Shown here: positions 47,201-64,000 of the stretch, in pieces
How the letters are laid out: each line of letters opens with the position of its first letter
Numbering within the stretch: the stretch's first letter is position 1
Assembly: GCA_046318155.1 (NCBI GenBank)
Contig: JBKCUU010000011.1
Location: 1-64,000 of the forward strand
Source of the DNA: Bdellovibrio sp.
GTDB taxonomy: Bacteria > Bdellovibrionota > Bdellovibrionia > Bdellovibrionales > Bdellovibrionaceae
Reading direction: 5' to 3'
Length of the DNA: 64,000 nt
Program-made: the position numbers and the translations under genes
Notes under the pieces: generated by a model
What the model was told of the DNA's origin: nothing
Seen by the model: the letters and a program-made list of their open reading frames with translations, nothing else
Databases searched by the model: none

Positions 47201-47437
47201 GCCATCGGCCTCAATGAAGCCTCGGCTCAGCGAACTTCGATGGGAGTTGCGATCATTGGTGGTCTGATCAGCTCGACGTTCTTGACGTTGTTGGTGGTTC
47301 CGGCGGCTTACGGTTATATCGATGACTTTAGACTGTGGTCGTCGCGTCTAGTTTTGCGTCTCCGTGACGGAAAGACAGGAGCCCATGCTCGTCATTCGGG
47401 TCCCGTGACCGTGGATCAAATCGCGGGTCCAAAGTAA
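44246..47437 (+). CDS. RND efflux permease (AcrB/AcrD/AcrF family)
   Basis: 1063 aa; GLLIDDAIVVREN, KNSILLVD, RLRPILMT. Confidence 0.95.
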   Translation: MNLAALSIKRPIFITCIVLLMLVLGAMSMKKMSVDLFPDVTFPIVFVQSIYPGASPVDMEKLVSKPIEDELGSLSGLDTMSSTNAESVSYVILKFKLGTDIKDAEQQVRQRIGNIRKNLPDELEQPVIRRLDPADQAVVQLAVVSDMDPAELYDVTNEIIKPKFETVAGVGQVLIVGGTKKEIQVLVDKSKLQDRRLSLLQVSDRIRSTSKDVPVGKLDTGDSEMVFRATGEFEKVDSLKKVNVSFFGSDQAVALESIAEVKEGLEERKSIATVMVRSEDFKKVPSIFVSVFKQSGSNTIAVVDTSLKRLPEVNKMLKDRGIKAEVKVVRENARPIRLNVADVRESIVIGIILCIIVVFFFLGSGRSTFITAMALPNSLLGGFVIMYAMGFTINILTLLALSLAVGLLIDDAIVVRENIFRHLEMGKSPMQAALEGTKEVALAVIATTLVVIAVFGPIAFLSGIVGQFFKQFGLTVVFTMLISLFDAFTVAPMLSAYMATKHEKDKGTGFIARMLAGFDRFQTGLESVYESSLEWVLKNPKKVLLMGFGTFVASILLARFIPATFLPAQDNGEFIVGIEKPVGTSLEATGQFMLKVEQMLKDNKSVELIASTVGSTSGQSESNKGSFYVRLVPRKDRDSNTTGVKETLRKTFEPLQAEARLEIGDINIGGNAEKVLNLNLIGDDLDTLSAYADKLAARVKQVKGLADVDTNYRSGKPEFHIDFKRSQSESLGVSTVTAGAELRARVEGVIAGTFRNNGIEYDIRVRLRDRDRDLRQEFATTMVPNTNFNQIPLAKIAEGVETKGFSQINRQNKARYINIGANLGAGGSLGNATTDIENIIAKEPEFAPPAGVSYKFIGQAEDFKELMQNMILAMLLGVLFIYLVLASLYESFVTPFTILLALPLGISGALFALLIMGKTLDLFSMIGFVMLLGVVAKNSILLVDYTKHLTEGGMDRSRAIVKAGRTRLRPILMTSFALIGGVIPIAIGLNEASAQRTSMGVAIIGGLISSTFLTLLVVPAAYGYIDDFRLWSSRLVLRLRDGKTGAHARHSGPVTVDQIAGPK

Positions 47438-48906
47438 TCTGGTTTGACTGTTTTTAGGTTCATCAAGGCTCGAAGAGATCTGATTTCTTCGAGCTTTTTG
47501 TTGTAAGGACCCCAATCATCTTGCTGATCAATCGGCGCCCAGAGGGCTTCGATCTCATCAATCAAAAGCGTCACGGGCGCGGCTCTTTGCAAGAGGGGGT
47601 GCTCACCTCGCTCGTGGCTGTCGATTGCAAATTTTTTGAGTTCATCGCAAAGCAAAAGACCCGCTTGAGTTCCCGTGTAGAGAGCGGCCTGCGGTGACAT
47701 CGGCCATGGGCCGGTGCCTTGATCCAAGGTGTTCCAGTTTCGACGGCAGCAATCAAAGAAGGTCTGCTCGTATTTGGTTGGCTGAGCCTCTTGAAAGTGG
47801 AAAAAGGCTCGAAGCAGGGTGTTATTCTCGTCAGTCGTGCGCGGTTTCAAGTTCAGCTTGTGCAAAAACATCAGCATCGTGCTGTCCGAAAAAATGTCGC
47901 CAAAATCGGCCAAAATTTCGGAGGTCGGGAGTTCGGGTACCAAGACTTCAAGGCTGCTCGCGAGCTGCTGGACAGCCCACAAGACCATTTGTGGTTGCCG
48001 GCCAAACGCGTACAGGCCTTGATGGTCAAAGTAAGCGGCCGTAAATCCCGGATCGTAGTGGGGGAGAAACCGGTAGGGCCCGTAATCAAAAGATTCGCCG
48101 GTGATGTTTAAATTATCCGTATTCAGAACGGCATGAACAAAGCCGGCAATCATCCACTGCGCTGTCAGGTGCGCCAATCGGTGGCTCACGTTCTTAAGAA
48201 ATTGAACGGCAAGCAGGCCCGTGTCTTCATTGGGATCTAGTTCGGTGATGAGGTGTCTGGCTGAATAGCGAAGTAGAGCTTCAAGTGCTGTCTTATTTTG
48301 AAAGTAGGCCAGGCGCTGAAAGGTGCCGATCCTGATGTGCGAGTGGCTAAACCTGGTCAGCACGGCCGATCGTGTGGGCGAGGGTTCATCGCCCCTGGTC
48401 AAGGGCTCACCCGTTTCAAAGAAGCAGAACGTGCGGCTGGTGTTGACGCCAACGGCCTCGAGAAGTTCCGTGGCCAATGATTCTCTGAAGGCCCCTTTAA
48501 GGGTCAGGCGGCCGTCGCCTCGCCGAGAGTAGGGTGTGGTGCCGGAGCCCTTGGTGCCAAAGTCCCAGAGTTTTCCTTGCCACTGCACCTGAGCGTACAA
48601 AAAGCCGCGTCCATCCCCCAGGTCAGGATTGTAATGTTGAAACTGATGCCCGTGGTAGCGAAGCGCGAGAGGCTTTGTAAGGCTTGAGGGAAACGGCTTA
48701 AATTCTTGAAACCGTTCTCTTTTTTGCGCCAGCTCTGGATACTCGGCCGTCCAGCCCATTTGATCGACAAGATCCTGATTCCAATACCGTAGGTGACTTT
48801 CAGGAAAGACAGCCGGCTTGACGGCATCATAGAATTCCGGCCCCAATTCGAGGAGATTTTTTGCAAGGAGGGCCTTTGTGTTGACAGAATCAGAGGGCTG
48901 GCTCAC
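47416..48906 (-). CDS. selO: Protein adenylyltransferase SelO (YdiU)
   Basis: YHGHQF...LGDGRG, KGSGTTPYSRRGDGR, FVHAVLNTDN, DYGPY. Confidence 0.93.
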   Translation of the reverse strand: MSQPSDSVNTKALLAKNLLELGPEFYDAVKPAVFPESHLRYWNQDLVDQMGWTAEYPELAQKRERFQEFKPFPSSLTKPLALRYHGHQFQHYNPDLGDGRGFLYAQVQWQGKLWDFGTKGSGTTPYSRRGDGRLTLKGAFRESLATELLEAVGVNTSRTFCFFETGEPLTRGDEPSPTRSAVLTRFSHSHIRIGTFQRLAYFQNKTALEALLRYSARHLITELDPNEDTGLLAVQFLKNVSHRLAHLTAQWMIAGFVHAVLNTDNLNITGESFDYGPYRFLPHYDPGFTAAYFDHQGLYAFGRQPQMVLWAVQQLASSLEVLVPELPTSEILADFGDIFSDSTMLMFLHKLNLKPRTTDENNTLLRAFFHFQEAQPTKYEQTFFDCCRRNWNTLDQGTGPWPMSPQAALYTGTQAGLLLCDELKKFAIDSHERGEHPLLQRAAPVTLLIDEIEALWAPIDQQDDWGPYNKKLEEIRSLRALMNLKTVKPDYFGPAI

Positions 48907-48917
48907 AAGTTTTGTCT

Positions 48918-49343
48918 ATGCGTCTCGTGCTCCAAAGCCAACTCAAAACTCGCGAAGACTCAAGCCTGCTTGATCGGCTTGGGATTTTCTTGTCGGCGCT
49001 TTGTATGCTTCACTGCCTGGTGACCCCATTTTTGATTTTGTCGCTGCCAATCATGGCCCGCTACTATCTTTTGCATCCTTACTTTCACTTTTTTATGGCG
49101 GCCGTTCTTTTGCCCTTGGGTCTTTTTGCCTTTGCCCGTGGCTACCGCTATCATCACAACAAGTGGGTTTGGATCTGGGGTCTGCCGGGTTTGTTTTTGG
49201 TGGTGATCAGTCCATTTATTTTGCACGAATATCAGGCACTGGGTCCCGAACCCCTATGGATTTCAGTCGGGAGTGTCTTGCTCGTCGCGGCCCATTGGAA
49301 GAACCAGCAGTCCTGCAATTGTGCCGTTCATCAACACCGCTAG
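48918..49343 (+). CDS. MerC-domain membrane protein
   Basis: LDRLGIFLSALCMLHC, HH loop, AAHWKN, C-terminal CNC..HQH. Confidence 0.82.
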   Translation: MRLVLQSQLKTREDSSLLDRLGIFLSALCMLHCLVTPFLILSLPIMARYYLLHPYFHFFMAAVLLPLGLFAFARGYRYHHNKWVWIWGLPGLFLVVISPFILHEYQALGPEPLWISVGSVLLVAAHWKNQQSCNCAVHQHR

Positions 49344-49344
49344 T

Positions 49345-49372
49345 TTTCATTTCACTTTCATTTGGTTTTCAT
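49345..49372 (+). promoter_or_regulatory. 11-bp-period TTTCAT direct repeats upstream of HiPIP
   Basis: TTTCAT at 49345, 49356 and 49367; 20/21 identical to 63346-63366 (reverse strand). Confidence 0.55.
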
Positions 49373-49407
49373 GAAAAATGGGGCTTCAACTTACTTGGAG
49401 GACCTTC

Positions 49408-49800
49408 ATGGATTCATCTCGTCGCGAATTTTTTAGAAAGACCCTGACCGTTGTGGGACTCGGTCTTGTTTTACCCACTCTACTCTCTCGTGTCGTTCAA
49501 GCCGAAGAGCGCCGCCGCTCACGCGATGCAGGTGCCAAGCCCGGCGAGCTTCCCATGGTGAAGCCCGGTGTTGGGATGGCCGTGAGTCTGAACTACGCCG
49601 AAAAGCACAGCGATATCAAAGACGCCAAGCTCAAGACGGAGCGTTCAGGGGTCCCTTTTGAGAAGCAGTACTGTAACAATTGTCTGCTCTATTCAAAAGA
49701 AAAGGGCGCTGGCGCCGCCGAAGTCGGAAAATGCCAGCTCTTTGCTGGTCAGCTCGTCAAAGGACAAGCTTGGTGCACCTCTTGGGCAAAAAAAGCCTAA
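49408..49800 (+). CDS. High-potential iron-sulfur protein (HiPIP), Tat-exported
   Basis: SRREFF Tat motif; CNNCLLY...CQLF...V...AWCTSW; GGAGG RBS. Confidence 0.88.
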   Translation: MDSSRREFFRKTLTVVGLGLVLPTLLSRVVQAEERRRSRDAGAKPGELPMVKPGVGMAVSLNYAEKHSDIKDAKLKTERSGVPFEKQYCNNCLLYSKEKGAGAAEVGKCQLFAGQLVKGQAWCTSWAKKA

Positions 49801-56714: not shown

Positions 56715-58925
56715 TTAGAAAACCTGTTCGATCCCCACCATCACGCTTTGGGGTTTGCCCGGACGCAAACCGAAGGGACGCCAAGAAACGGCGTACTCTT
56801 TGCCCAGAAGATTGTCGACCCGAGCAAACAGATGGCCCTGCCTGGTGTACTGATACCGCGTGTTCCAGTCGATGATACCGTAGGCTGGCAGTTGCAGTCG
56901 CCCTTGGCTGACCGACTGGTCATAGACCGCGCTCGTGTATTGAAAGAGCAGCTCTTGTTGCCATTTGCGAAATTCGGTTCCAAAGGCCAAGGTTCCCTGA
57001 AAAGCAGGGATGTAAGGAAGCGGATCCCCGGATTGAATTTGGCCCGTACCCCATTCTGGATTTTTGGATTCACTGTTCTCGGCAAACTGCGCCGAGAGCC
57101 AAGTCATATTCGCGCGGATTGGAAGTCCTAGAGAACCATAACGAAAGCGTTTGGCGAGTCGTCCTTCAAGGCCATACACCTTAGCTTTACCGCCCGAGTA
57201 CTCTTCATTGAGTTGATCATTGGTCGAGCCCGAAGCAAAGCTCGCGGTGCCTTTGATATTTTGGTAATCGTTAAAAAAGCCTGCAAGCTCAGCTTGAACT
57301 TCAAGATCTTCATTCAAATAACGAGAGAACACTTCATAGTTGATGCTCTGTTCAGGATCCTCATCATCAACGGCGTTGACGCCAACCAGAGTCAGTCCGC
57401 GAGCCACGGTGGATCCCACTGTCCAATTGTCGGTGACTTTGTAGGCCAGCCCCGCGCCGGGCGCAAAACCCTCAACGGATTTGGACTCAGATTCGCCGCT
57501 GAGATCATTGTTCATTGCGTACTCAACCGATTCGGCTCGGCCCATGAACTGAAATCTCCAGCGGCGAATATCCATCTCGTAGCCCACACCCAAGGTTCGC
57601 GCCGAGGCCGAATCACGGTTTTGCGCGGTTAGTAGCGAGGTGGGCGTCACCCGCTCGAGCTGGCCTTGAGTCATCGAAAAATAGTCGGTGCGGTGGTGAC
57701 GCTCGATCTGATCTTGGTGCAAGCGAAAGCTGACCGACAAACGGTGTTCTTTCTCGCCTTGGGTAAAGCTTTGCCAAAGTTCGGTTTGAACGCCTTGGCT
57801 ATAAAAGAAACGGTCATTTTGAATAACGGCCAAGTCTCCGCCCGTTCCAATCGAAGAGGAGTCTTCTTCGCCAGTCAGGACTTGGTAATAAGGCAACTGC
57901 CTCCCGGTAGGATTTCGCATGACTTGGTCGATGCTCATCGCCTGATTTCGAAATCCGTTCAGGCGGTTCCAATTACGATGAAAATCGTGACGGTAAGCGG
58001 TCGCTTTGATGGTCCCCTGACCTAAGAGCTGCTGGTAATCAAACTGAAGACGCGTGTGTTTCCAGCGCATCTCATCTTGAGCGCTCGAGGCGTAACGGCG
58101 AAACGGATCTTGGGCAAAATCATTGGCGGTCAGGCCCGTGTAGGTCTCATCCGAAATTTCATCGGCGTAGCCCAGTTTAAATCCCACTTTGGCTTGGTGG
58201 CTCGCTCCCGGCAGTTCGTACTCGGATTTCATCAAGAGATCATTTTTTGAAAAACCCGTGGACTTATCATCGGGAAGTTTTTTGAAGCCATTCGACTCGG
58301 CTTTTGAAACATTAAGCAAACCCGCCAACCCGTTCGATTTGCCGCCGCCTTCGAGCAAATAAATTTGCTGACCAAAGGATCCACCCGAAACTTGGGCGCG
58401 CGTTTGATTTTGCAGCGGAATGGGGCGCGTGCGGTAATTGATTGCGCCGCCAATTGAGTTCGGACCATACGGAACGGCGGCAAGTCCCTTCATGACTTCG
58501 AGGTTACCCGTATGAAGCATCGAGGGCGAGTAGTAAGCAGCAGGAGCGGCGTAAGGTGCGGGTCCAATCAGAACGCCGTCTTCGAGGAGCACCACTTTGC
58601 GCGAGCGGTGGGGATGGGTTCCGCGTAAACCAATGTTGGGGCGAAGACCCATGCCATCTTCTTCTTGAATCTGAACACCCGGAACCTGCTTCAGAGCACG
58701 GTTCACGTCTTGAATTTTTTGATTTTGTAAAACCTGAGATCCTACGGTTTGCGAGGCCGACACTTGATCAAGACGTTCGCGGTTATCAAGAATCCGGATC
58801 GTCTCCAGCGTCGTCGTTTTGCTGTCTGCGGGAGCCGAGAGGGCGGCGTCTGGCATTTTCTCGATGGAAGTCGACTGGGCCCACAGGGGTGATGGAAGAA
58901 GAGAAAAAAGTAAAATGATCATCAT
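56715..58925 (-). CDS. TonB-dependent receptor (FecA-like Fe3+ family)
   Basis: Plug VPGV...EEDG.GLRPNIGLRG...RS.KV.LLEDG, APYAAPAAYY; C-terminal DNLL...RPG...F. Confidence 0.93.
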   Translation of the reverse strand: MMIILLFSLLPSPLWAQSTSIEKMPDAALSAPADSKTTTLETIRILDNRERLDQVSASQTVGSQVLQNQKIQDVNRALKQVPGVQIQEEDGMGLRPNIGLRGTHPHRSRKVVLLEDGVLIGPAPYAAPAAYYSPSMLHTGNLEVMKGLAAVPYGPNSIGGAINYRTRPIPLQNQTRAQVSGGSFGQQIYLLEGGGKSNGLAGLLNVSKAESNGFKKLPDDKSTGFSKNDLLMKSEYELPGASHQAKVGFKLGYADEISDETYTGLTANDFAQDPFRRYASSAQDEMRWKHTRLQFDYQQLLGQGTIKATAYRHDFHRNWNRLNGFRNQAMSIDQVMRNPTGRQLPYYQVLTGEEDSSSIGTGGDLAVIQNDRFFYSQGVQTELWQSFTQGEKEHRLSVSFRLHQDQIERHHRTDYFSMTQGQLERVTPTSLLTAQNRDSASARTLGVGYEMDIRRWRFQFMGRAESVEYAMNNDLSGESESKSVEGFAPGAGLAYKVTDNWTVGSTVARGLTLVGVNAVDDEDPEQSINYEVFSRYLNEDLEVQAELAGFFNDYQNIKGTASFASGSTNDQLNEEYSGGKAKVYGLEGRLAKRFRYGSLGLPIRANMTWLSAQFAENSESKNPEWGTGQIQSGDPLPYIPAFQGTLAFGTEFRKWQQELLFQYTSAVYDQSVSQGRLQLPAYGIIDWNTRYQYTRQGHLFARVDNLLGKEYAVSWRPFGLRPGKPQSVMVGIEQVF

Positions 58926-60352
58926 GGGCGGGCCTCGTTTTTAGCAGCGGCGTCTTTCAAGGCAACGACCGGTCTGGGGGCTGTCGGCTGTTTTGAAGGC
59001 GCGGGGAGAATCCAATTTTTTTGTGTGAGCCGGTCGGCCTGTGTCGTGAGATCCACTTTGGGATCAATCATCAATTGCGCGGGCCGCGAATTGAGTGAAA
59101 CCCAAGCCTCGGCATAAACGGCGACATCAAAACCTTTGCCTTTAAAATCATCACGAATCAAATGAGCCATTTGTAAAATTAAATCGGGTTGGCCCGACAT
59201 CTCGAGCTCTTGGTGCTGTGCTAAGTATTGGGCCGGCGACACGTCCCAAGTTCGATCAGACTTTCGGTCGACCACTTTAAAGGTCACTTGACCATTCTTC
59301 TCTCGAACCATCACCTTCCAAGAAAAACGCATGCCTTCTTCCGACCACAACAAGTGACTGTCATAGGCCAGGTGCCTGAGCGGCATTAAAAATTGGAAGC
59401 AAACCCACGAGCCAATTCCGGCCTGGAGCAGAAAACCTCGGGCTCTGGACAAGCTCGGCGCGGTCGAAGTTACGCTTGGGGCTGAGACTGAATCTCGATC
59501 CACCCGCCAAGGCGTCAAGGTTTGGAGATGTGCCGCAAGCTGAAGCGGCCACGTTGGCGAAAAGAAGACTGTGGCCATGCCGATCATGATGAGTGGAAAG
59601 AGTCCAATCGGAAAGAACAGACTCGTCAACGCGTGAAAGACGACGATGACACCGTAAGCGACCAAACGCGTGCGCGGAATCAGCATCCAAATCCAAATCG
59701 TCGTATCAAATAAAAAGCCCGACCAGGCCATCACATACTGAACCCAAGTTTGCGTGAGCCATGTGCCGATCAAAGGGAGATCGCCTTGGGCCATCATCCA
59801 GCCGTGCATGGGCTGAGCAAAAAGCAACCAATCCGATCCGAGTTTGGCGATGCCCGCAAAAAAATAAACGGTGGCCACCTGAAACCGAAGCAAATTCAAG
59901 CACCACGCGGGTGCAGTTTTGTTTTCGGTGGTCCATCCAAAGACGACGTCAAGCGAAAGCCGGGTGTTCAAAGGTAAAAATAAATTTAAAAAGGCGAGCA
60001 GCGAAACCAGGTAGTAGTGGTTTAAGTAATTCGAGAGGTCCATCAACTCGATGTAAGTAAAACTTAAAAACAGCGCCAAGCTTGCAAAGCGGTATAAAAA
60101 TCCAAAGGCGACGGCCAAGCCACTGAGGATCCCGATCACGAACAAAGCATACACAAAAACTGGCGCGGGGACAGTGACCCAGTCAAAGCCCCAATAGCTA
60201 AAGAAGTGCGTGGGTTCAATAAACGAGCGCTCCAGCCAGCCGTTCCACCAAAAACGCGTCAAACTCCAGGCGACCAAAAGCCCAAAGTACACCCGGTAAA
60301 AAACCAGGGACGCATTATCATGAGAGCGCAGGAGCCAGGAGCTCTTAATCAT
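58922..60352 (-). CDS. HTTM-domain vitamin K-dependent gamma-carboxylase-like membrane protein
   Basis: SL..YR.YFG, YLNHYYL, YFFAGIAKLGSDW, FH...IGLFP, EEGMRFSWKVM, QPDLILQ.AH, SLNSRP; start moved to ATG 60352. Confidence 0.88.
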   Translation of the reverse strand: MIKSSWLLRSHDNASLVFYRVYFGLLVAWSLTRFWWNGWLERSFIEPTHFFSYWGFDWVTVPAPVFVYALFVIGILSGLAVAFGFLYRFASLALFLSFTYIELMDLSNYLNHYYLVSLLAFLNLFLPLNTRLSLDVVFGWTTENKTAPAWCLNLLRFQVATVYFFAGIAKLGSDWLLFAQPMHGWMMAQGDLPLIGTWLTQTWVQYVMAWSGFLFDTTIWIWMLIPRTRLVAYGVIVVFHALTSLFFPIGLFPLIMIGMATVFFSPTWPLQLAAHLQTLTPWRVDRDSVSAPSVTSTAPSLSRARGFLLQAGIGSWVCFQFLMPLRHLAYDSHLLWSEEGMRFSWKVMVREKNGQVTFKVVDRKSDRTWDVSPAQYLAQHQELEMSGQPDLILQMAHLIRDDFKGKGFDVAVYAEAWVSLNSRPAQLMIDPKVDLTTQADRLTQKNWILPAPSKQPTAPRPVVALKDAAAKNEARP

Positions 60353-61625
60353 TGTCCCCTTCGATGGTTTTCGGTGGCCGCAGGTCAAAAACGCTCAAGA
60401 ATTCGGATTTCATCAAGATGCTGACTTGGCGAATATCTTGAAAAAGAGCGCAAGCGGGAACAAGGCGCGAATCCCAAGTGGTTTTTGCGCACTCATTGGC
60501 ATCAAGGGTGGCCAAGATTGTCTGCATGGATTCATTTTGCATTTGGGTCGATTGTTTGACCGCGCGGTCAATGGCATCATGCAAACGATCAGCAACATCG
60601 GAACGGCCCAGTTTTTTAAGGCCATCATCAAGGCCAAACCCAAGCTCGTCTCGAGATTTTGCACCCCAGAATAAAATCTGAAGCATCGAGAGGTTTTCTT
60701 TGATCGCCGCAAAGCTTAAATCTGAATAGCGAAGCTCGGCTTGCTCGGGGCAGCTCGCACTCAAGCAATCTTTGTGACGTCCTAAGGGCTTTCCAAGTTT
60801 GGAGTCCTTTATGACCTCAATGCGAAAGAGATGATCAGAAAAATCATTCAAAGAGGCCTGTGCCGTTTTGTATCTTGAACCGTCGACGAGGGCTTTTGCA
60901 AAGTGCCCTTCAGCGGGGTTCCAGGCTTTCCAAAGAAGAGCCGTTTTATCCTCAAGGTCTTTGGCGAGGCCGGCGGCCATTGTACAACGCGACTGGCGTT
61001 TTTCGAGCACAGGCTTTTCGGACCAGATTTTGGTTTCGGGATAAGCTCTGGAGTTGCACACGCTGACTAAAGATTTTTCAAACAGAAGGTACTCGAGAGC
61101 TGAAAGCCCTTTGATCGTATGAAGTAAGCGGGCCGCAGGTGTGCGCTCGGTTGGTGACTGAAGAACTTCGCGGTCAATTCCACAGTAGTTCACGATCGGC
61201 CACGCATAAATATTGTCGATCAAAAAATTGCCATTGTCTTCAAGCGGACCGATGGGCGCCGCGAGCAAGGCTTGAAAACGCAAAAGAGCTGCTTTGTATT
61301 TATTTTGAAGCTCCATCCATTTTGCATCCGTCAGATTTTCGCAGGCGCCGTCCAGACCCAAGGCAAAAACCTGAGCTTCAACTTGGTACTCTTTTACTTT
61401 TTGGGTCAGTAACAGCCCCATGTTGTAGAGCATTTTTTCTTTAGTGAATTCGCCCTCATTTGGTTTTTGCAGCTCCGGAGGGAGCGGCTTTTGGGGGCCG
61501 GCGGGTGTGCCGGGCGCAGGTGGATTGTTCGCCTCGGGTTTATTGTTGTTGGTGAAGTCACTGCAAGCGACGAGGGCAAGTGTGAGAAAAAGCAGAGGCA
61601 GTTGTTTGTAGTTCAGTGAGTTCAT
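60345..61625 (-). CDS. Imelysin (peptidase M75)-family lipoprotein
   Basis: Lipobox VAC; GP, WP, KGLSALEYLLF, KLGKPLG, C-terminal EGDND. Confidence 0.82.
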   Translation of the reverse strand: MNSLNYKQLPLLFLTLALVACSDFTNNNKPEANNPPAPGTPAGPQKPLPPELQKPNEGEFTKEKMLYNMGLLLTQKVKEYQVEAQVFALGLDGACENLTDAKWMELQNKYKAALLRFQALLAAPIGPLEDNGNFLIDNIYAWPIVNYCGIDREVLQSPTERTPAARLLHTIKGLSALEYLLFEKSLVSVCNSRAYPETKIWSEKPVLEKRQSRCTMAAGLAKDLEDKTALLWKAWNPAEGHFAKALVDGSRYKTAQASLNDFSDHLFRIEVIKDSKLGKPLGRHKDCLSASCPEQAELRYSDLSFAAIKENLSMLQILFWGAKSRDELGFGLDDGLKKLGRSDVADRLHDAIDRAVKQSTQMQNESMQTILATLDANECAKTTWDSRLVPACALFQDIRQVSILMKSEFLSVFDLRPPKTIEGDND

Positions 61626-61628
61626 CCG

Positions 61629-62255
61629 TTACTCCAAGTCATAATCAAGCGGGACTAGGAAATCCCAGTAGGTACGGTTCAGTTCTTTCGGAATCGGTTC
61701 GAGGCGCGCTAAAGATTTAAGAATTTTGAGGGCATCTTGATTGATCGAATCATAGGGGCTTGCCTGGCGCAGCTCTGTGTTTTGAACTTCACCTGAAGCC
61801 AAAACTCGAAAGGTCAGAACGACGCGGCCGGTGTGTCCCAACCGGCGAGCGGCCGGTGGGTAAGTCTTTTGCTTAGCAATCTGCGTGCGAACATAATGTT
61901 CGTAGCGTGATTGAAGACTGATTTGCGAGGCCGTTTCAGCGACTTGAGATGAAGTGCCTTGCGCCGAGGGAACGTCTGCCGAAGAACTTGGACCAGAGTC
62001 CGCAGCCTGATCTAGCGCCGGAGTTGCGAGATCTGTCTTTGAGTTTGCGGTGCCTTCGATTGGCCGTGGCTTGCTGGCGACGAGTTGGTTTTTTTCGCGA
62101 ACGTCAGTCTTGAGCGGCAGCAAAGTTTGGATTTCGATGGGTTGCTGACCGGTGTTCGATAGATCCGGAAAAAATCTCAGACCGCCCATCAGGGCGACCA
62201 GAGAGACGTGCAGACCGAGCGAAAGGCCAATGGCTCCGCGCCGCTTCAACTTCAT
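61629..62255 (-). CDS. tonB: Energy transducer TonB
   Basis: TM with SLGLH; YPPAARRLGHTGRV C-terminal domain. Confidence 0.88.
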   Translation of the reverse strand: MKLKRRGAIGLSLGLHVSLVALMGGLRFFPDLSNTGQQPIEIQTLLPLKTDVREKNQLVASKPRPIEGTANSKTDLATPALDQAADSGPSSSADVPSAQGTSSQVAETASQISLQSRYEHYVRTQIAKQKTYPPAARRLGHTGRVVLTFRVLASGEVQNTELRQASPYDSINQDALKILKSLARLEPIPKELNRTYWDFLVPLDYDLE

Positions 62256-63238
62256 TTATAACCAATTTCCGAAAATATTTGGCGGGCTTGGGGAACAAAA
62301 GTTCCAATTTGCGACCAAGGAGTCGAATCCGTTTTGAAGGTGCCCCAGTCTTTGATGAAAGTATTGGGAATCAAACCTTGAATGACGGGGTAGTCCAAGT
62401 GGCCTGATGAAATTTGCAATTGAACCTCCTCGGTTAACAAGAGCTCGATAAATTTCTGCGCTAACGCTAGCTTCTGAGAAGTTTTCAAAATTCCCATGCC
62501 CGAACCATTTGTGTGAACGCCACCTTTTGATTGCTCGAGGAACTGGATTTTGACCGGGAAGTTGGGCTTTTGTGCGACGATCCCAGCCAAGTAATACGAA
62601 TTGACGATGCCAACGTCGCACACACCCGTTGCGATCGCTTCAAGTAAAGCGGTGTCATTTGGAAACACAGTCGTCGCCAAGTTCGCAATAAATCCCATCA
62701 GAATTTCTTTTGCTTTTTCTGCACCGTAAGTCGAGATCAAGTAGGCTCCAAGTGCTTCGCTATAACCTCCGCTTGAACTGCGTAGGCACAAGCGCCCTGC
62801 CCATTTTGCATCCGCGAGATCTGCATAGTTATTAATGTCAGAAGCGTTCACGCGAGAGGGGTCGAAGGCGGCCGTCCGAGCGCGGAAGGTCAGGCCGATC
62901 CAAAGATTTTGGGGGTCGCGCATGGCGGGGATGACTCGTGAGGTTTCGCGTGTGGTTGCCATGGGTTGGAACAAATTTTTTTGCGAAGCCTCAATCAAAT
63001 TCACAAGGTCCTTGGTCATGAGACTATCGGCCGGAGTCTGGCTGCCTTCAGCGGTCAGTTTTGCAATCAAAGCCGGATATCCAGCTTCGACGATGATAAC
63101 CTTCTCTCCCGTCAATGCTTGAAATTTTTGAGCAACAGGTGTGAGGCGAGCGGTGGGTCGGTCTGTGTAAAGTGTCAGGTCAGCGGTTGCCGTCTGCGCG
63201 GTCAAAGCGACCAAAAGAGCCATAGCTGTTTTTTTCAT
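62252..63238 (-). CDS. futA: Fe(III) ABC-type periplasmic binding protein (FutA/FbpA family)
   Basis: AEGSQTPAD, WIGLTFRAR, W.GRLCLR, GVCDVGIVNSYY, GVHTNGSG. Confidence 0.88.
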   Translation of the reverse strand: MKKTAMALLVALTAQTATADLTLYTDRPTARLTPVAQKFQALTGEKVIIVEAGYPALIAKLTAEGSQTPADSLMTKDLVNLIEASQKNLFQPMATTRETSRVIPAMRDPQNLWIGLTFRARTAAFDPSRVNASDINNYADLADAKWAGRLCLRSSSGGYSEALGAYLISTYGAEKAKEILMGFIANLATTVFPNDTALLEAIATGVCDVGIVNSYYLAGIVAQKPNFPVKIQFLEQSKGGVHTNGSGMGILKTSQKLALAQKFIELLLTEEVQLQISSGHLDYPVIQGLIPNTFIKDWGTFKTDSTPWSQIGTFVPQARQIFSEIGYK

Positions 63239-63377: not shown

Positions 63378-64000
63378 ATGCCAATGATAAATGCAGTTCT
63401 AGGTCTTATCTTGATGTTTTCTTGCCACAGCATGAGCCAAACAACGAAAGAGGTTTCGACGTTCGTGATTGCTCTCAAACCTGATAAAAATCCTGAAGCC
63501 ATGATTCAAGAGCGCAAGGAGCTCGAAGCTTACTTGGCTCTAGAAACTGGACGCAAAGTTCAAGTTGTGATTCCGTTAACGGGCTCGGTCATCCAAGAGG
63601 GCTTTATCAACGGCACGATCGATCTAGCTTACGTCTCAGGACTTGAGATGGTTCGCGCCGCAAAAACGAAGGCCGCTGATCTCTTGCTCGTCACCGAGGT
63701 TGATGGGAGGACCTCCTATGAATCTTATTGGGTCAGCCTTAAAGACAAGCCCTATGCAAAAGTGCAAGACCTCAAAGGAAAGCCCGTCACTTTTGCCAGC
63801 CGTACGAGCACATCAGGCTTTTTGATTCCTATGGCCGACTTGGTGCAAAAAAAGTTGATGAAAGAAAAAGCGGCGCCCGAAGATTTCTTTGGCGCCGGCC
63901 ATGTGACTTTTGGCACAGGTTATGTCTCTGCGATTGAACGCGTGCTTGCGGGTCAATCAGAAGCCGCGGCCGTGAGTGACTATGTCATGAAAAAAGACAA
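63378..64000 (+). CDS. phnD: Phosphate/phosphite/phosphonate ABC substrate-binding protein, partial (runs off the window)
   Basis: Hand translation MPMINAVLG...ALKPDKNP...GTIDLAY...DLKGKPVTFASRTSTSGFLIP; GGAG RBS; absent from the ORF track. Confidence 0.82.
   Translation, partial: MPMINAVLGLILMFSCHSMSQTTKEVSTFVIALKPDKNPEAMIQERKELEAYLALETGRKVQVVIPLTGSVIQEGFINGTIDLAYVSGLEMVRAAKTKAADLLLVTEVDGRTSYESYWVSLKDKPYAKVQDLKGKPVTFASRTSTSGFLIPMADLVQKKLMKEKAAPEDFFGAGHVTFGTGYVSAIERVLAGQSEAAAVSDYVMKKD

Follow-up and report, generated by a model that had tools for sequence, protein, structure and literature searches.

The DNA analysed here is a stretch of 64,000 nucleotides (the window) from Bdellovibrio sp., positions 1 to 64,000 of contig JBKCUU010000011.1 in assembly GCA_046318155.1. 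It carries a cassette of five open reading frames (ORFs) on the minus strand, encoding a FutA-type protein, TonB, an imelysin lipoprotein, a membrane protein of the HTTM family that resembles the vitamin K-dependent γ-glutamyl carboxylase GGCX, and a FecA-like receptor. The HTTM-imelysin system is real and conserved, and apart from one regulation table it is undescribed in the literature searched. The features are:

62252..63238, minus strand: FutA/FbpA-type periplasmic Fe(III)-binding protein, 328 residues (Pfam SBP_bac families and phmmer)
61629..62255, minus strand: TonB, 208 residues (PF03544, TonB_C, E 5e-14; TIGR01352 over its cut-off)
60345..61625, minus strand: IPPA/PA4372-type imelysin lipoprotein, 426 residues, the proposed substrate (PF09375, Peptidase_M75, E 1e-19)
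60345..60368, minus strand: acidic C-terminal tail of the imelysin, T420-I-E422-G-D424-N-D426-stop (sequence, and modelled interface of residues 419-426)
58922..60352, minus strand: GGCX-like membrane protein, 476 residues, with HTTM (PF05090, E 6e-70) and VKGC_lumenal_dom (PF22777, E 2e-47) domains
56715..58925, minus strand: FecA-like TonB-dependent receptor, 736 residues (PF07715, plug, and PF00593, barrel)

The genes are closely packed. The ATGA overlaps of futA with tonB (62252-62255) and of the HTTM gene with the receptor gene (58922-58925), the common orientation, and the gap of 3 nucleotides between tonB and the imelysin gene are as described in an initial annotation of this DNA, which did not mention the 8-nucleotide overlap of the imelysin and HTTM genes (60345-60352). 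The HTTM gene begins with an ATG, downstream of the TTG at 60388 chosen by the ORF lister, and this start codon falls inside the codons of the imelysin tail. The spacing suggests that the five genes are co-transcribed as one operon. The GC content is even throughout the region. Three of the four gene junctions are bridged in other DNA runs, futA/tonB and imelysin/HTTM by contigs of one run from another study and HTTM/receptor by contigs of another run; no single contig covers the full cassette. A promoter scan gave two sites against 4.1 expected, none of them upstream of futA, and terminator predictions were not much above those in shuffled sequences. An enterobacterial 19-mer Fur consensus has no match with up to three mismatches in the window; the motif of the host may differ. 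The nearest named loci belong to metagenome-assembled genomes of Bdellovibrionales, at about 50% identity.

Linkage of HTTM with imelysin

Genes carrying both the HTTM and VKGC domains were found in 10 of 251 Bdellovibrionota genomes, 35 of 151 Myxococcota genomes and 2 of 301 Pseudomonadota genomes. To these were added 27 further genome loci, the best 80 of 515 metagenome loci, and five plasmid records; Bacteroidota are represented by metagenome contigs, of inferred taxonomy, and by plasmid records. Of the 150 distinct HTTM proteins, 136 form one clade (support 0.83) and 14 lie outside it. An IPPA/PA4372-type imelysin gene adjoins the HTTM gene in 100 of the 101 clade loci that have at least 1 kb of upstream sequence, and in all 63 for which both flanks are available. 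None of the 14 homologues outside the clade has an adjacent imelysin. Retrieval with clade queries inflates the share of the clade in the sample, not the rate of adjacency. The linkage extends over Bdellovibrionota, Myxococcota, Bacteroidota-like contigs, SAR324 and Granulosicoccus, which bears out the initial suggestion of similar neighbourhoods in other phyla. Of the conditions named initially as refuting that could be checked, a catalytic Lys out of alignment and a lack of conserved synteny, neither applies. Among the 63 loci with both flanks, a receptor is present in 50, DUF4856 in 38 and DHOR, a di-haem oxidoreductase, in 13, while DUF1513 and FAH, a membrane di-iron hydroxylase of the fatty-acid-hydroxylase family, occur in none.

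The imelysin has the lipobox LVAC21 and the GxxxxE motif, here G173-L-S-A-L-E178, without the histidine. These features place it in the IPPA-type family as defined in the accessible text of PMC3143127, and the PF09375 profile scores 71.7 bits against a cut-off of 23.5. Sequence searches gave no solved relative for this imelysin, for FAH or for DUF1513.

Some loci are arranged in other ways. In one (L174:302-10099) a DUF4856 gene, two IPPA-type imelysins, an IrpA-type imelysin, DHOR, HTTM and a receptor form a single run, and in two others a gene with a hemerythrin domain follows HTTM in the place of the receptor (L155:1602-2345 and L186:3097-3849). DUF4856 proteins (for example L120:4158-5384) weakly match the FEA1-related lipoprotein model NF038033 (E 5e-7), a hint of kinship with algal iron-assimilation proteins.

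The open literature searched, subscription journals and supplements lying outside it, contains no link between HTTM and imelysin and no carboxylated bacterial protein. The accessible parts of PMC5561996, PMC9146348, PMC9478572 and bioRxiv 2020.04.03.015982 say nothing on HTTM.

The HTTM protein and its predicted complex with imelysin

The HTTM protein belongs to the HTTM/VKGC family and would work, if anything, like GGCX. Its HTTM profile scores 236 bits and its lumenal-domain profile 162, the cut-off being 27.7 for each, and phmmer aligns residues 7-450 with residues 55-504 of human GGCX (E 3e-36). The alignment ends at residue 504 of 758, leaving no propeptide-binding C-terminal domain; because of this absence the protein is not a GGCX of the animal type, although it may still work like one. 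An AlphaFold2 model built from a 96-row alignment has a pLDDT of 94.6; a single-sequence model was discarded (pLDDT 45.5). All 16 Foldseek matches of the model at E≤0.001 are GGCX, with TM-scores up to 0.81; the comparison with GGCX gives E 3e-22, a TM-score of 0.80 and 24% identity. The fold of the HTTM and lumenal domains is thus shared with human GGCX (PDB 9wfc, 9l21, 9bvk).

The GGCX-like motifs noticed initially proved to be genuine. Alignment places the catalytic lysine K170 on human K218, N111/H112 on N159/H160, W175 on W223, and W345/M348 on W399/M402, to which can be added H240 (H287), F252 (F299) and D216 (D263), with R406 replaced by lysine. K170, W175, N111, H112, H240 and F252 are invariant in all 96 aligned members, and D216 is kept in at least 90% of the rows; the equivalents of N159, H160, K218, W223, H287 and F299 are present in every imelysin-linked row aligned. 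According to the accessible parts of PMC12647623 and PMC13187478, K218 and W223 of GGCX form the base, N159, H160 and Y395 hold the Glu carboxylate, F299 stacks the CO2, H287, N290 and S300 contact the quinone, and E82 backs H160. The protein differs from GGCX at E82, N290, S300, Y395 and M401 (V347 here). Two members of the Glu-binding triad (N111/H112) are thus invariant, while the Y395 position is M341 in this protein and M, F, Y or W in the clade.

The imelysin-linked clade is marked in the pocket by the changes of N290 to T, M401 to V, and D78 to a small residue. The 14 standalone genes (L033, L034, L036-L041, L043, L044, L199, L200, L202, L203) keep N290, M401 and an acid at position 78; their active sites are nearer to the human one and no common neighbour was seen. 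The Granulosicoccus genome G251 carries one gene of each kind (L023, L200). Three more, distant HTTM-domain genes are found in the Bdellovibrio genome itself (G000:C111:8640-9008, C80:6133-6891 and C53:11603-12061).

Little is recorded of bacterial relatives. A Leptospira orthologue is reported to be an epoxidase without protein carboxylation. The study of the Streptomyces protein MloH (Law et al. 2018) is known here only through papers citing it. MloH is a bacterial vitamin K-dependent carboxylase homologue that carboxylates an Asp residue in a polyketide synthase-nonribosomal peptide synthetase intermediate of malonomycin (accessible text of PMC12186529, PMC12647623 and bioRxiv 2026.08.19.745780). 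As it is described there, its substrate is a small-molecule intermediate and its HTTM domain is fused to a DUF5819-like region, which set it apart from the protein discussed here.

The reading we favour, somewhat beyond an even chance, is that the HTTM protein carboxylates the tail of the imelysin in a menaquinol-, O2- and CO2-dependent reaction and thereby turns it into a protein-tethered Fe(III) chelator. Unlike GGCX, it would then have as its proposed substrate just one lipoprotein, encoded next to it, which carries an acidic C-terminal tail and is recognised by way of its folded body. The tail had been proposed before the complex of HTTM residues 3-455 with imelysin residues 50-426 was predicted by ESMFold2. 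The prediction has an ipSAE of 0.80, against 0.59 for the best control, an unrelated one; the ipSAE mark is reached by 116 of 157 solved pairs and 2 of 215 mismatched pairs, and is only rough when a complex is predicted with its own alignments. At least 82% of the contacts recur between runs, and the partner pLDDT does not fall below 85. In the best-resolved pairs, luminal-domain residues 353-355, 369-371 and 417-425 meet helix 402-408 and loop 282-285 of the imelysin. The interface also lists HTTM residues 110-112, 247-252, 347-348 and 351 and imelysin residues 419-426, so that the active site and the tail may touch each other. K406 and E408 of the imelysin were considered as interface marks specific to HTTM and rejected, as FAH-linked copies keep both; only R62 and Y216 differ from FAH-linked imelysins, and in one clade only.

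A tail lying in the pocket would fit equally well if HTTM were a redox port, with the tail delivering Fe(III) to the pocket for reduction and release by menaquinol, and with no carboxylation involved. The replaced Y395, E82 and N290, the lack of a permease gene in the cassette and the presence of DHOR in 13 of the 63 operons would suit such a port. However, the invariance of K170/W175, N111/H112 and F252 exceeds what iron reduction would need, and DHOR accompanies HTTM rather than replacing it, so that we regard the port as improbable. It is still less probable that HTTM uses quinol to activate O2 and then hydroxylates or otherwise oxidises a tail residue, arriving like FAH at an α-hydroxy acid ligand, or that it is an epoxidase only. 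HTTM and the di-iron hydroxylase would then be analogous in the strict sense, and the reported epoxidase activity of the Leptospira orthologue would fit. Against this, F252, at the CO2 site, is invariant, and no precedent for hydroxylation in the family was found in the literature searched.

The exchange of HTTM and the imelysin tail

The HTTM gene occupies a slot that other loci fill differently; in the clade it is mutually exclusive with FAH and with DUF1513. In Pseudomonadota the ORF after the IPPA-type imelysin encodes DUF1513 in 24 of 25 loci scanned, a count that excludes three loci with a non-IPPA imelysin or no called ORF. In the order of genome G262, also Pseudomonadota, FAH is found in 11 of 12 DUF4856-imelysin-receptor loci, the twelfth being cut by the contig end, and none of the five genomes with such a cassette has a member of the HTTM clade. 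A further 40 imelysin loci were picked for lacking HTTM, 20 from 39 positive Bdellovibrionota genomes and 20 from Myxococcota. FAH is present in 33 of them, and a full HTTM or DUF1513 gene in none. Of the remaining seven, four end at a contig edge, one has another imelysin type and two have none of these genes within 13.5 kb. In the family of the present genome, PF22777 is absent from all 28 sampled genomes, and there FAH accompanies the FutA-(TonB)-imelysin-receptor genes; no such FAH was found in the present genome. In general, therefore, the cassette can do without HTTM and, to qualify the initial view of it as a part of the system, it is one of three interchangeable slot genes. Here it has probably replaced FAH, to judge from these relatives.

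The FAH cassette (DUF4856 or FutA, imelysin, receptor, FAH) has the same imelysin subfamily and receptor and is found in several phyla; it differs in having FAH for HTTM and Gln or Ala for Glu at position -5 of the tail. The DUF1513-linked operon likewise has an IPPA-type GxxxxE lipoprotein with a D-x-D end, and its IrpA-DHOR-IPPA core also occurs in 13 of the 63 HTTM loci, but DUF1513 stands in the place of HTTM. A search of the Atlas for DUF1513 matched only DUF1513 itself. The accessible text of bioRxiv 072470 describes DUF1513 as cofit with its operon, that is, the genes are cofit in mutant screens.

FAH and the receptor lie in one open frame, with an apparent internal signal peptide between them, in 11 of the 20 Myxococcota loci (L298, L300, L302, L303, L304, L305, L307, L308, L311, L314, L315); such a frame likely encodes a polyprotein of an inner-membrane enzyme and an outer-membrane barrel. 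In two loci (L296:6411-8588 and L297:1625-3919) a single ORF encodes a fusion in which FAH precedes the imelysin.

The exchange of slot genes is reflected in the tail. The D-x-D end is present in all IPPA-type imelysins seen; it was rejected as a feature specific to HTTM, and, because it is family-wide, it is no evidence for HTTM. In the crystal structure of IPPA the last six residues are disordered, according to the accessible part of PMC3143127. Position -5, however, differs with the slot gene: it is Glu or Asp in 102 of 128 HTTM-linked tails, 3 of 42 FAH-linked tails and 1 of 32 DUF1513-linked tails, counting only proteins that end in D-x-D, de-duplicated on their last 40 residues, with 8 unassigned proteins excluded. 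The imelysin of the window has Glu422 at this position, and the other members of its clade, which are FAH-linked, all have Gln. Glutamine is isosteric with glutamate and cannot be carboxylated. Locus L288 is an exception in the reverse direction, having FAH together with Glu at -5. The pair Ile421-Glu422 matches the hydrophobic-then-Glu rule of GGCX, as far as the rule is set out in the accessible sources.

Since the start of the next gene can lie within the codons of the tail, as at this locus, the contrast was stratified by whether a start codon follows, with this locus included. Without a following start the -5 acid is found in 62 of 77 HTTM-linked, 2 of 24 FAH-linked and 0 of 20 DUF1513-linked tails; with one, in 41 of 52, 1 of 18 and 0 of 11, respectively. 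Overlap with a Shine-Dalgarno sequence or start codon thus does not account for the contrast. A partial contribution remains among xDND tails: 15 of 26 with a following start have the -5 acid, but only 8 of 22 without one.

The receptor has no such signature. Every Glu or Asp kept in at least 80% of 24 HTTM-linked receptors is also kept in 11 FAH-linked ones, leaving no HTTM-specific acid. Carboxylation of the receptor, in the EEDG motif of its plug or in its loops, might be read from the ATGA overlap with HTTM, the presence of a receptor in 50 of the 63 loci and the conserved E89, E115, E256 and E260. As the receptor is also absent from 13 of these loci and shares all its conserved acids with FAH-linked copies, this seems very improbable.

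The exchange could also mean that HTTM and FAH both make a small or lipid-linked carboxylate chelator, α-carboxylated in one case and α-hydroxylated in the other, which the imelysin binds or presents, its tail only docking. This has perhaps one chance in several: FAH replaces HTTM in 11 of 12 loci of the Pseudomonadota order and in 33 of the 40 HTTM-less loci counted above, enzymes of the FAH family act on lipids (FAH weakly matches OlsE, E 6e-15), MloH acts on a small molecule (PMC12186529, accessible text), and the nearest solved relative of the receptor takes up ferric citrate. However, genes for biosynthesis, acyl transfer or export do not recur in the loci examined, and the exchange of Glu for Gln at -5 would go unexplained. 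Each turnover would moreover yield a quinone epoxide, which the majority of the bacterial VKORs that have been assayed cannot reduce (PMC4555120, accessible text); no VKOR match was found in two of five HTTM genomes. Poor recycling of the epoxide therefore suits a single turnover per protein, as in carboxylation of the imelysin tail.

The present genome has menB and menA genes over the cut-offs, menC- and menE-like genes below them in one cluster, and a VKOR-like gene. Near men genes, L245:13925-14884 weakly matches an IscB model (E 2e-11, 44 bits against a cut-off of 175), probably only through an HNH domain. Quinone type was rejected as the cause of the exchange of HTTM and FAH, menB being present in two of three FAH genomes and absent from the HTTM genome G251.

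Iron and the proposed mechanism

The iron linkage of the HTTM cassette rests on its neighbours, on the PA4370-73 operon and on a table for Riemerella anatipestifer. FutA matches the Fe3+ ABC binding protein 7li0 (E 1e-67) and FutA 2pt1 (E 2e-54). FecA is the only PDB match of the receptor at E≤1e-5 (E 3e-24); the score against the ferric-citrate FecA model NF041676 (108 bits, E 3e-31) is far below the cut-off of 1100, and by this measure the receptor would be FecA-like only, ferric citrate not being supported as its ligand. The PA4370-73 operon, which contains a member of the imelysin family, is Fur-regulated (PMC3143127, accessible text). In R. anatipestifer, RAYM_09779-09794 encode a receptor, a 'vitamin K-dependent gamma-carboxylase', an imelysin and a hypothetical protein; table 4 of PMC5609570 gives the receptor, carboxylase and imelysin genes as 2.1- to 3.1-fold up without iron and 1.4- to 1.9-fold up in a fur mutant. 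The gene order matches by annotation only, and the accessible text has a table entry with no function discussed. The initial annotation did not note that the same run, by annotation, has already been tabled as iron-responsive.

A divergent ORF, open at its 3' end (63378-63998), shares the 139-nucleotide gap upstream of futA; its product may resemble a phosphonate-type ABC binding protein. Positions 48912-49800 hold a MerC-family membrane gene and, after it, a gene for a high-potential iron-sulfur protein; selO (47416-48906) is divergent from them. In three related genomes (L002-L004), not in others, a phosphatidylserine decarboxylase gene lies upstream of the futA cassette, probably as local context.

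A number of observations weigh against carboxylation of the tail. The human residues Y395, E82, N290 and S300, mutation of which impairs GGCX, correspond to M341, F34, T243 and P253. None of the 25 best-resolved pairs in the predicted complex involves the tail, the margin over the control is only +0.21 (mark 0.20), and solved structures of GGCX with peptides may bias the placement of the tail. In FAH-linked imelysins the D-x-D end and, at the interface, K406/E408 are no less conserved, so that neither is specific to HTTM. The -5 acid is missing from 19 of 41 HTTM-linked xDND tails, and the proteins counted are kin rather than independent, with about five changes between HTTM and FAH on the tree. 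The weightiest objection is FAH, the usual replacement of HTTM: its His boxes are predicted, from rough hydropathy and a positive-inside count, to be cytoplasmic, and it belongs to a lipid-hydroxylase family, neither of which is easily reconciled with a substrate that is a protein tail in the periplasm. Genome G251, in spite of its linked HTTM gene, has no match for menB, mqnA or VKOR. Finally, because unmodified recombinant IPPA bound neither Fe3+ nor haem (PMC3143127, accessible text), iron binding by the imelysin family is unproven.

The carboxylation mechanism would run as follows. The imelysin lipoprotein, exported and anchored in the inner membrane, would dock through its body on the luminal domain of HTTM, a contact that in the model stands in for the missing propeptide site, and its tail would reach the active-site face. 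K170 would activate menaquinol and O2, and a tail acid would be carboxylated. The modified residue may be the acid at -5, Glu422 becoming Gla here and Asp becoming carboxy-Asp in the Bacteroidota-type (D-x-D-G-D) tails. The invariant Asp424 and Asp426 may be alternative or further sites, because MloH shows that the family can carboxylate Asp. The malonate group and the D-x-D pair would form the tethered Fe(III) chelator, from which iron would be handed to the FecA-like receptor; TonB would drive import and FutA would receive the iron. FAH and DUF1513 may complete this lipoprotein, or the ligand that it uses, by different routes. Of the three mechanisms proposed initially, carboxylation of a partner is thus the best supported, directed to the C-terminal tail of the imelysin, and nothing points to the receptor. 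The γ-carboxylation of Glu then suggested fits only Glu-bearing lineages such as this one, because the conserved tail acids are mostly Asp.

Bacterial homologues of GGCX are widespread, but in the papers found only one substrate is known for them, a small molecule, and none that is a protein; the present analysis puts forward a candidate protein, Glu422 as the residue concerned and +44 Da as the expected signature. It also bears on the imelysins, whose part in iron uptake the structures of 2011 did not settle; recombinant proteins made without a tailoring partner may simply have been unfinished. Through the three-way exchange of HTTM, FAH and DUF1513, cross-complementation could be used to probe two further uncharacterised families. 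We tentatively suggest, as a possibility distinctly short of even, that many Gram-negative phyla tailor the imelysin tail into a protein-tethered siderophore by means of HTTM, FAH or DUF1513. The HTTM version would then provide a natural bacterial protein substrate of vitamin K-dependent carboxylation. It would also offer a plausible setting in which the chemistry of GGCX is older, namely the making of metal-binding malonate groups on exported proteins.

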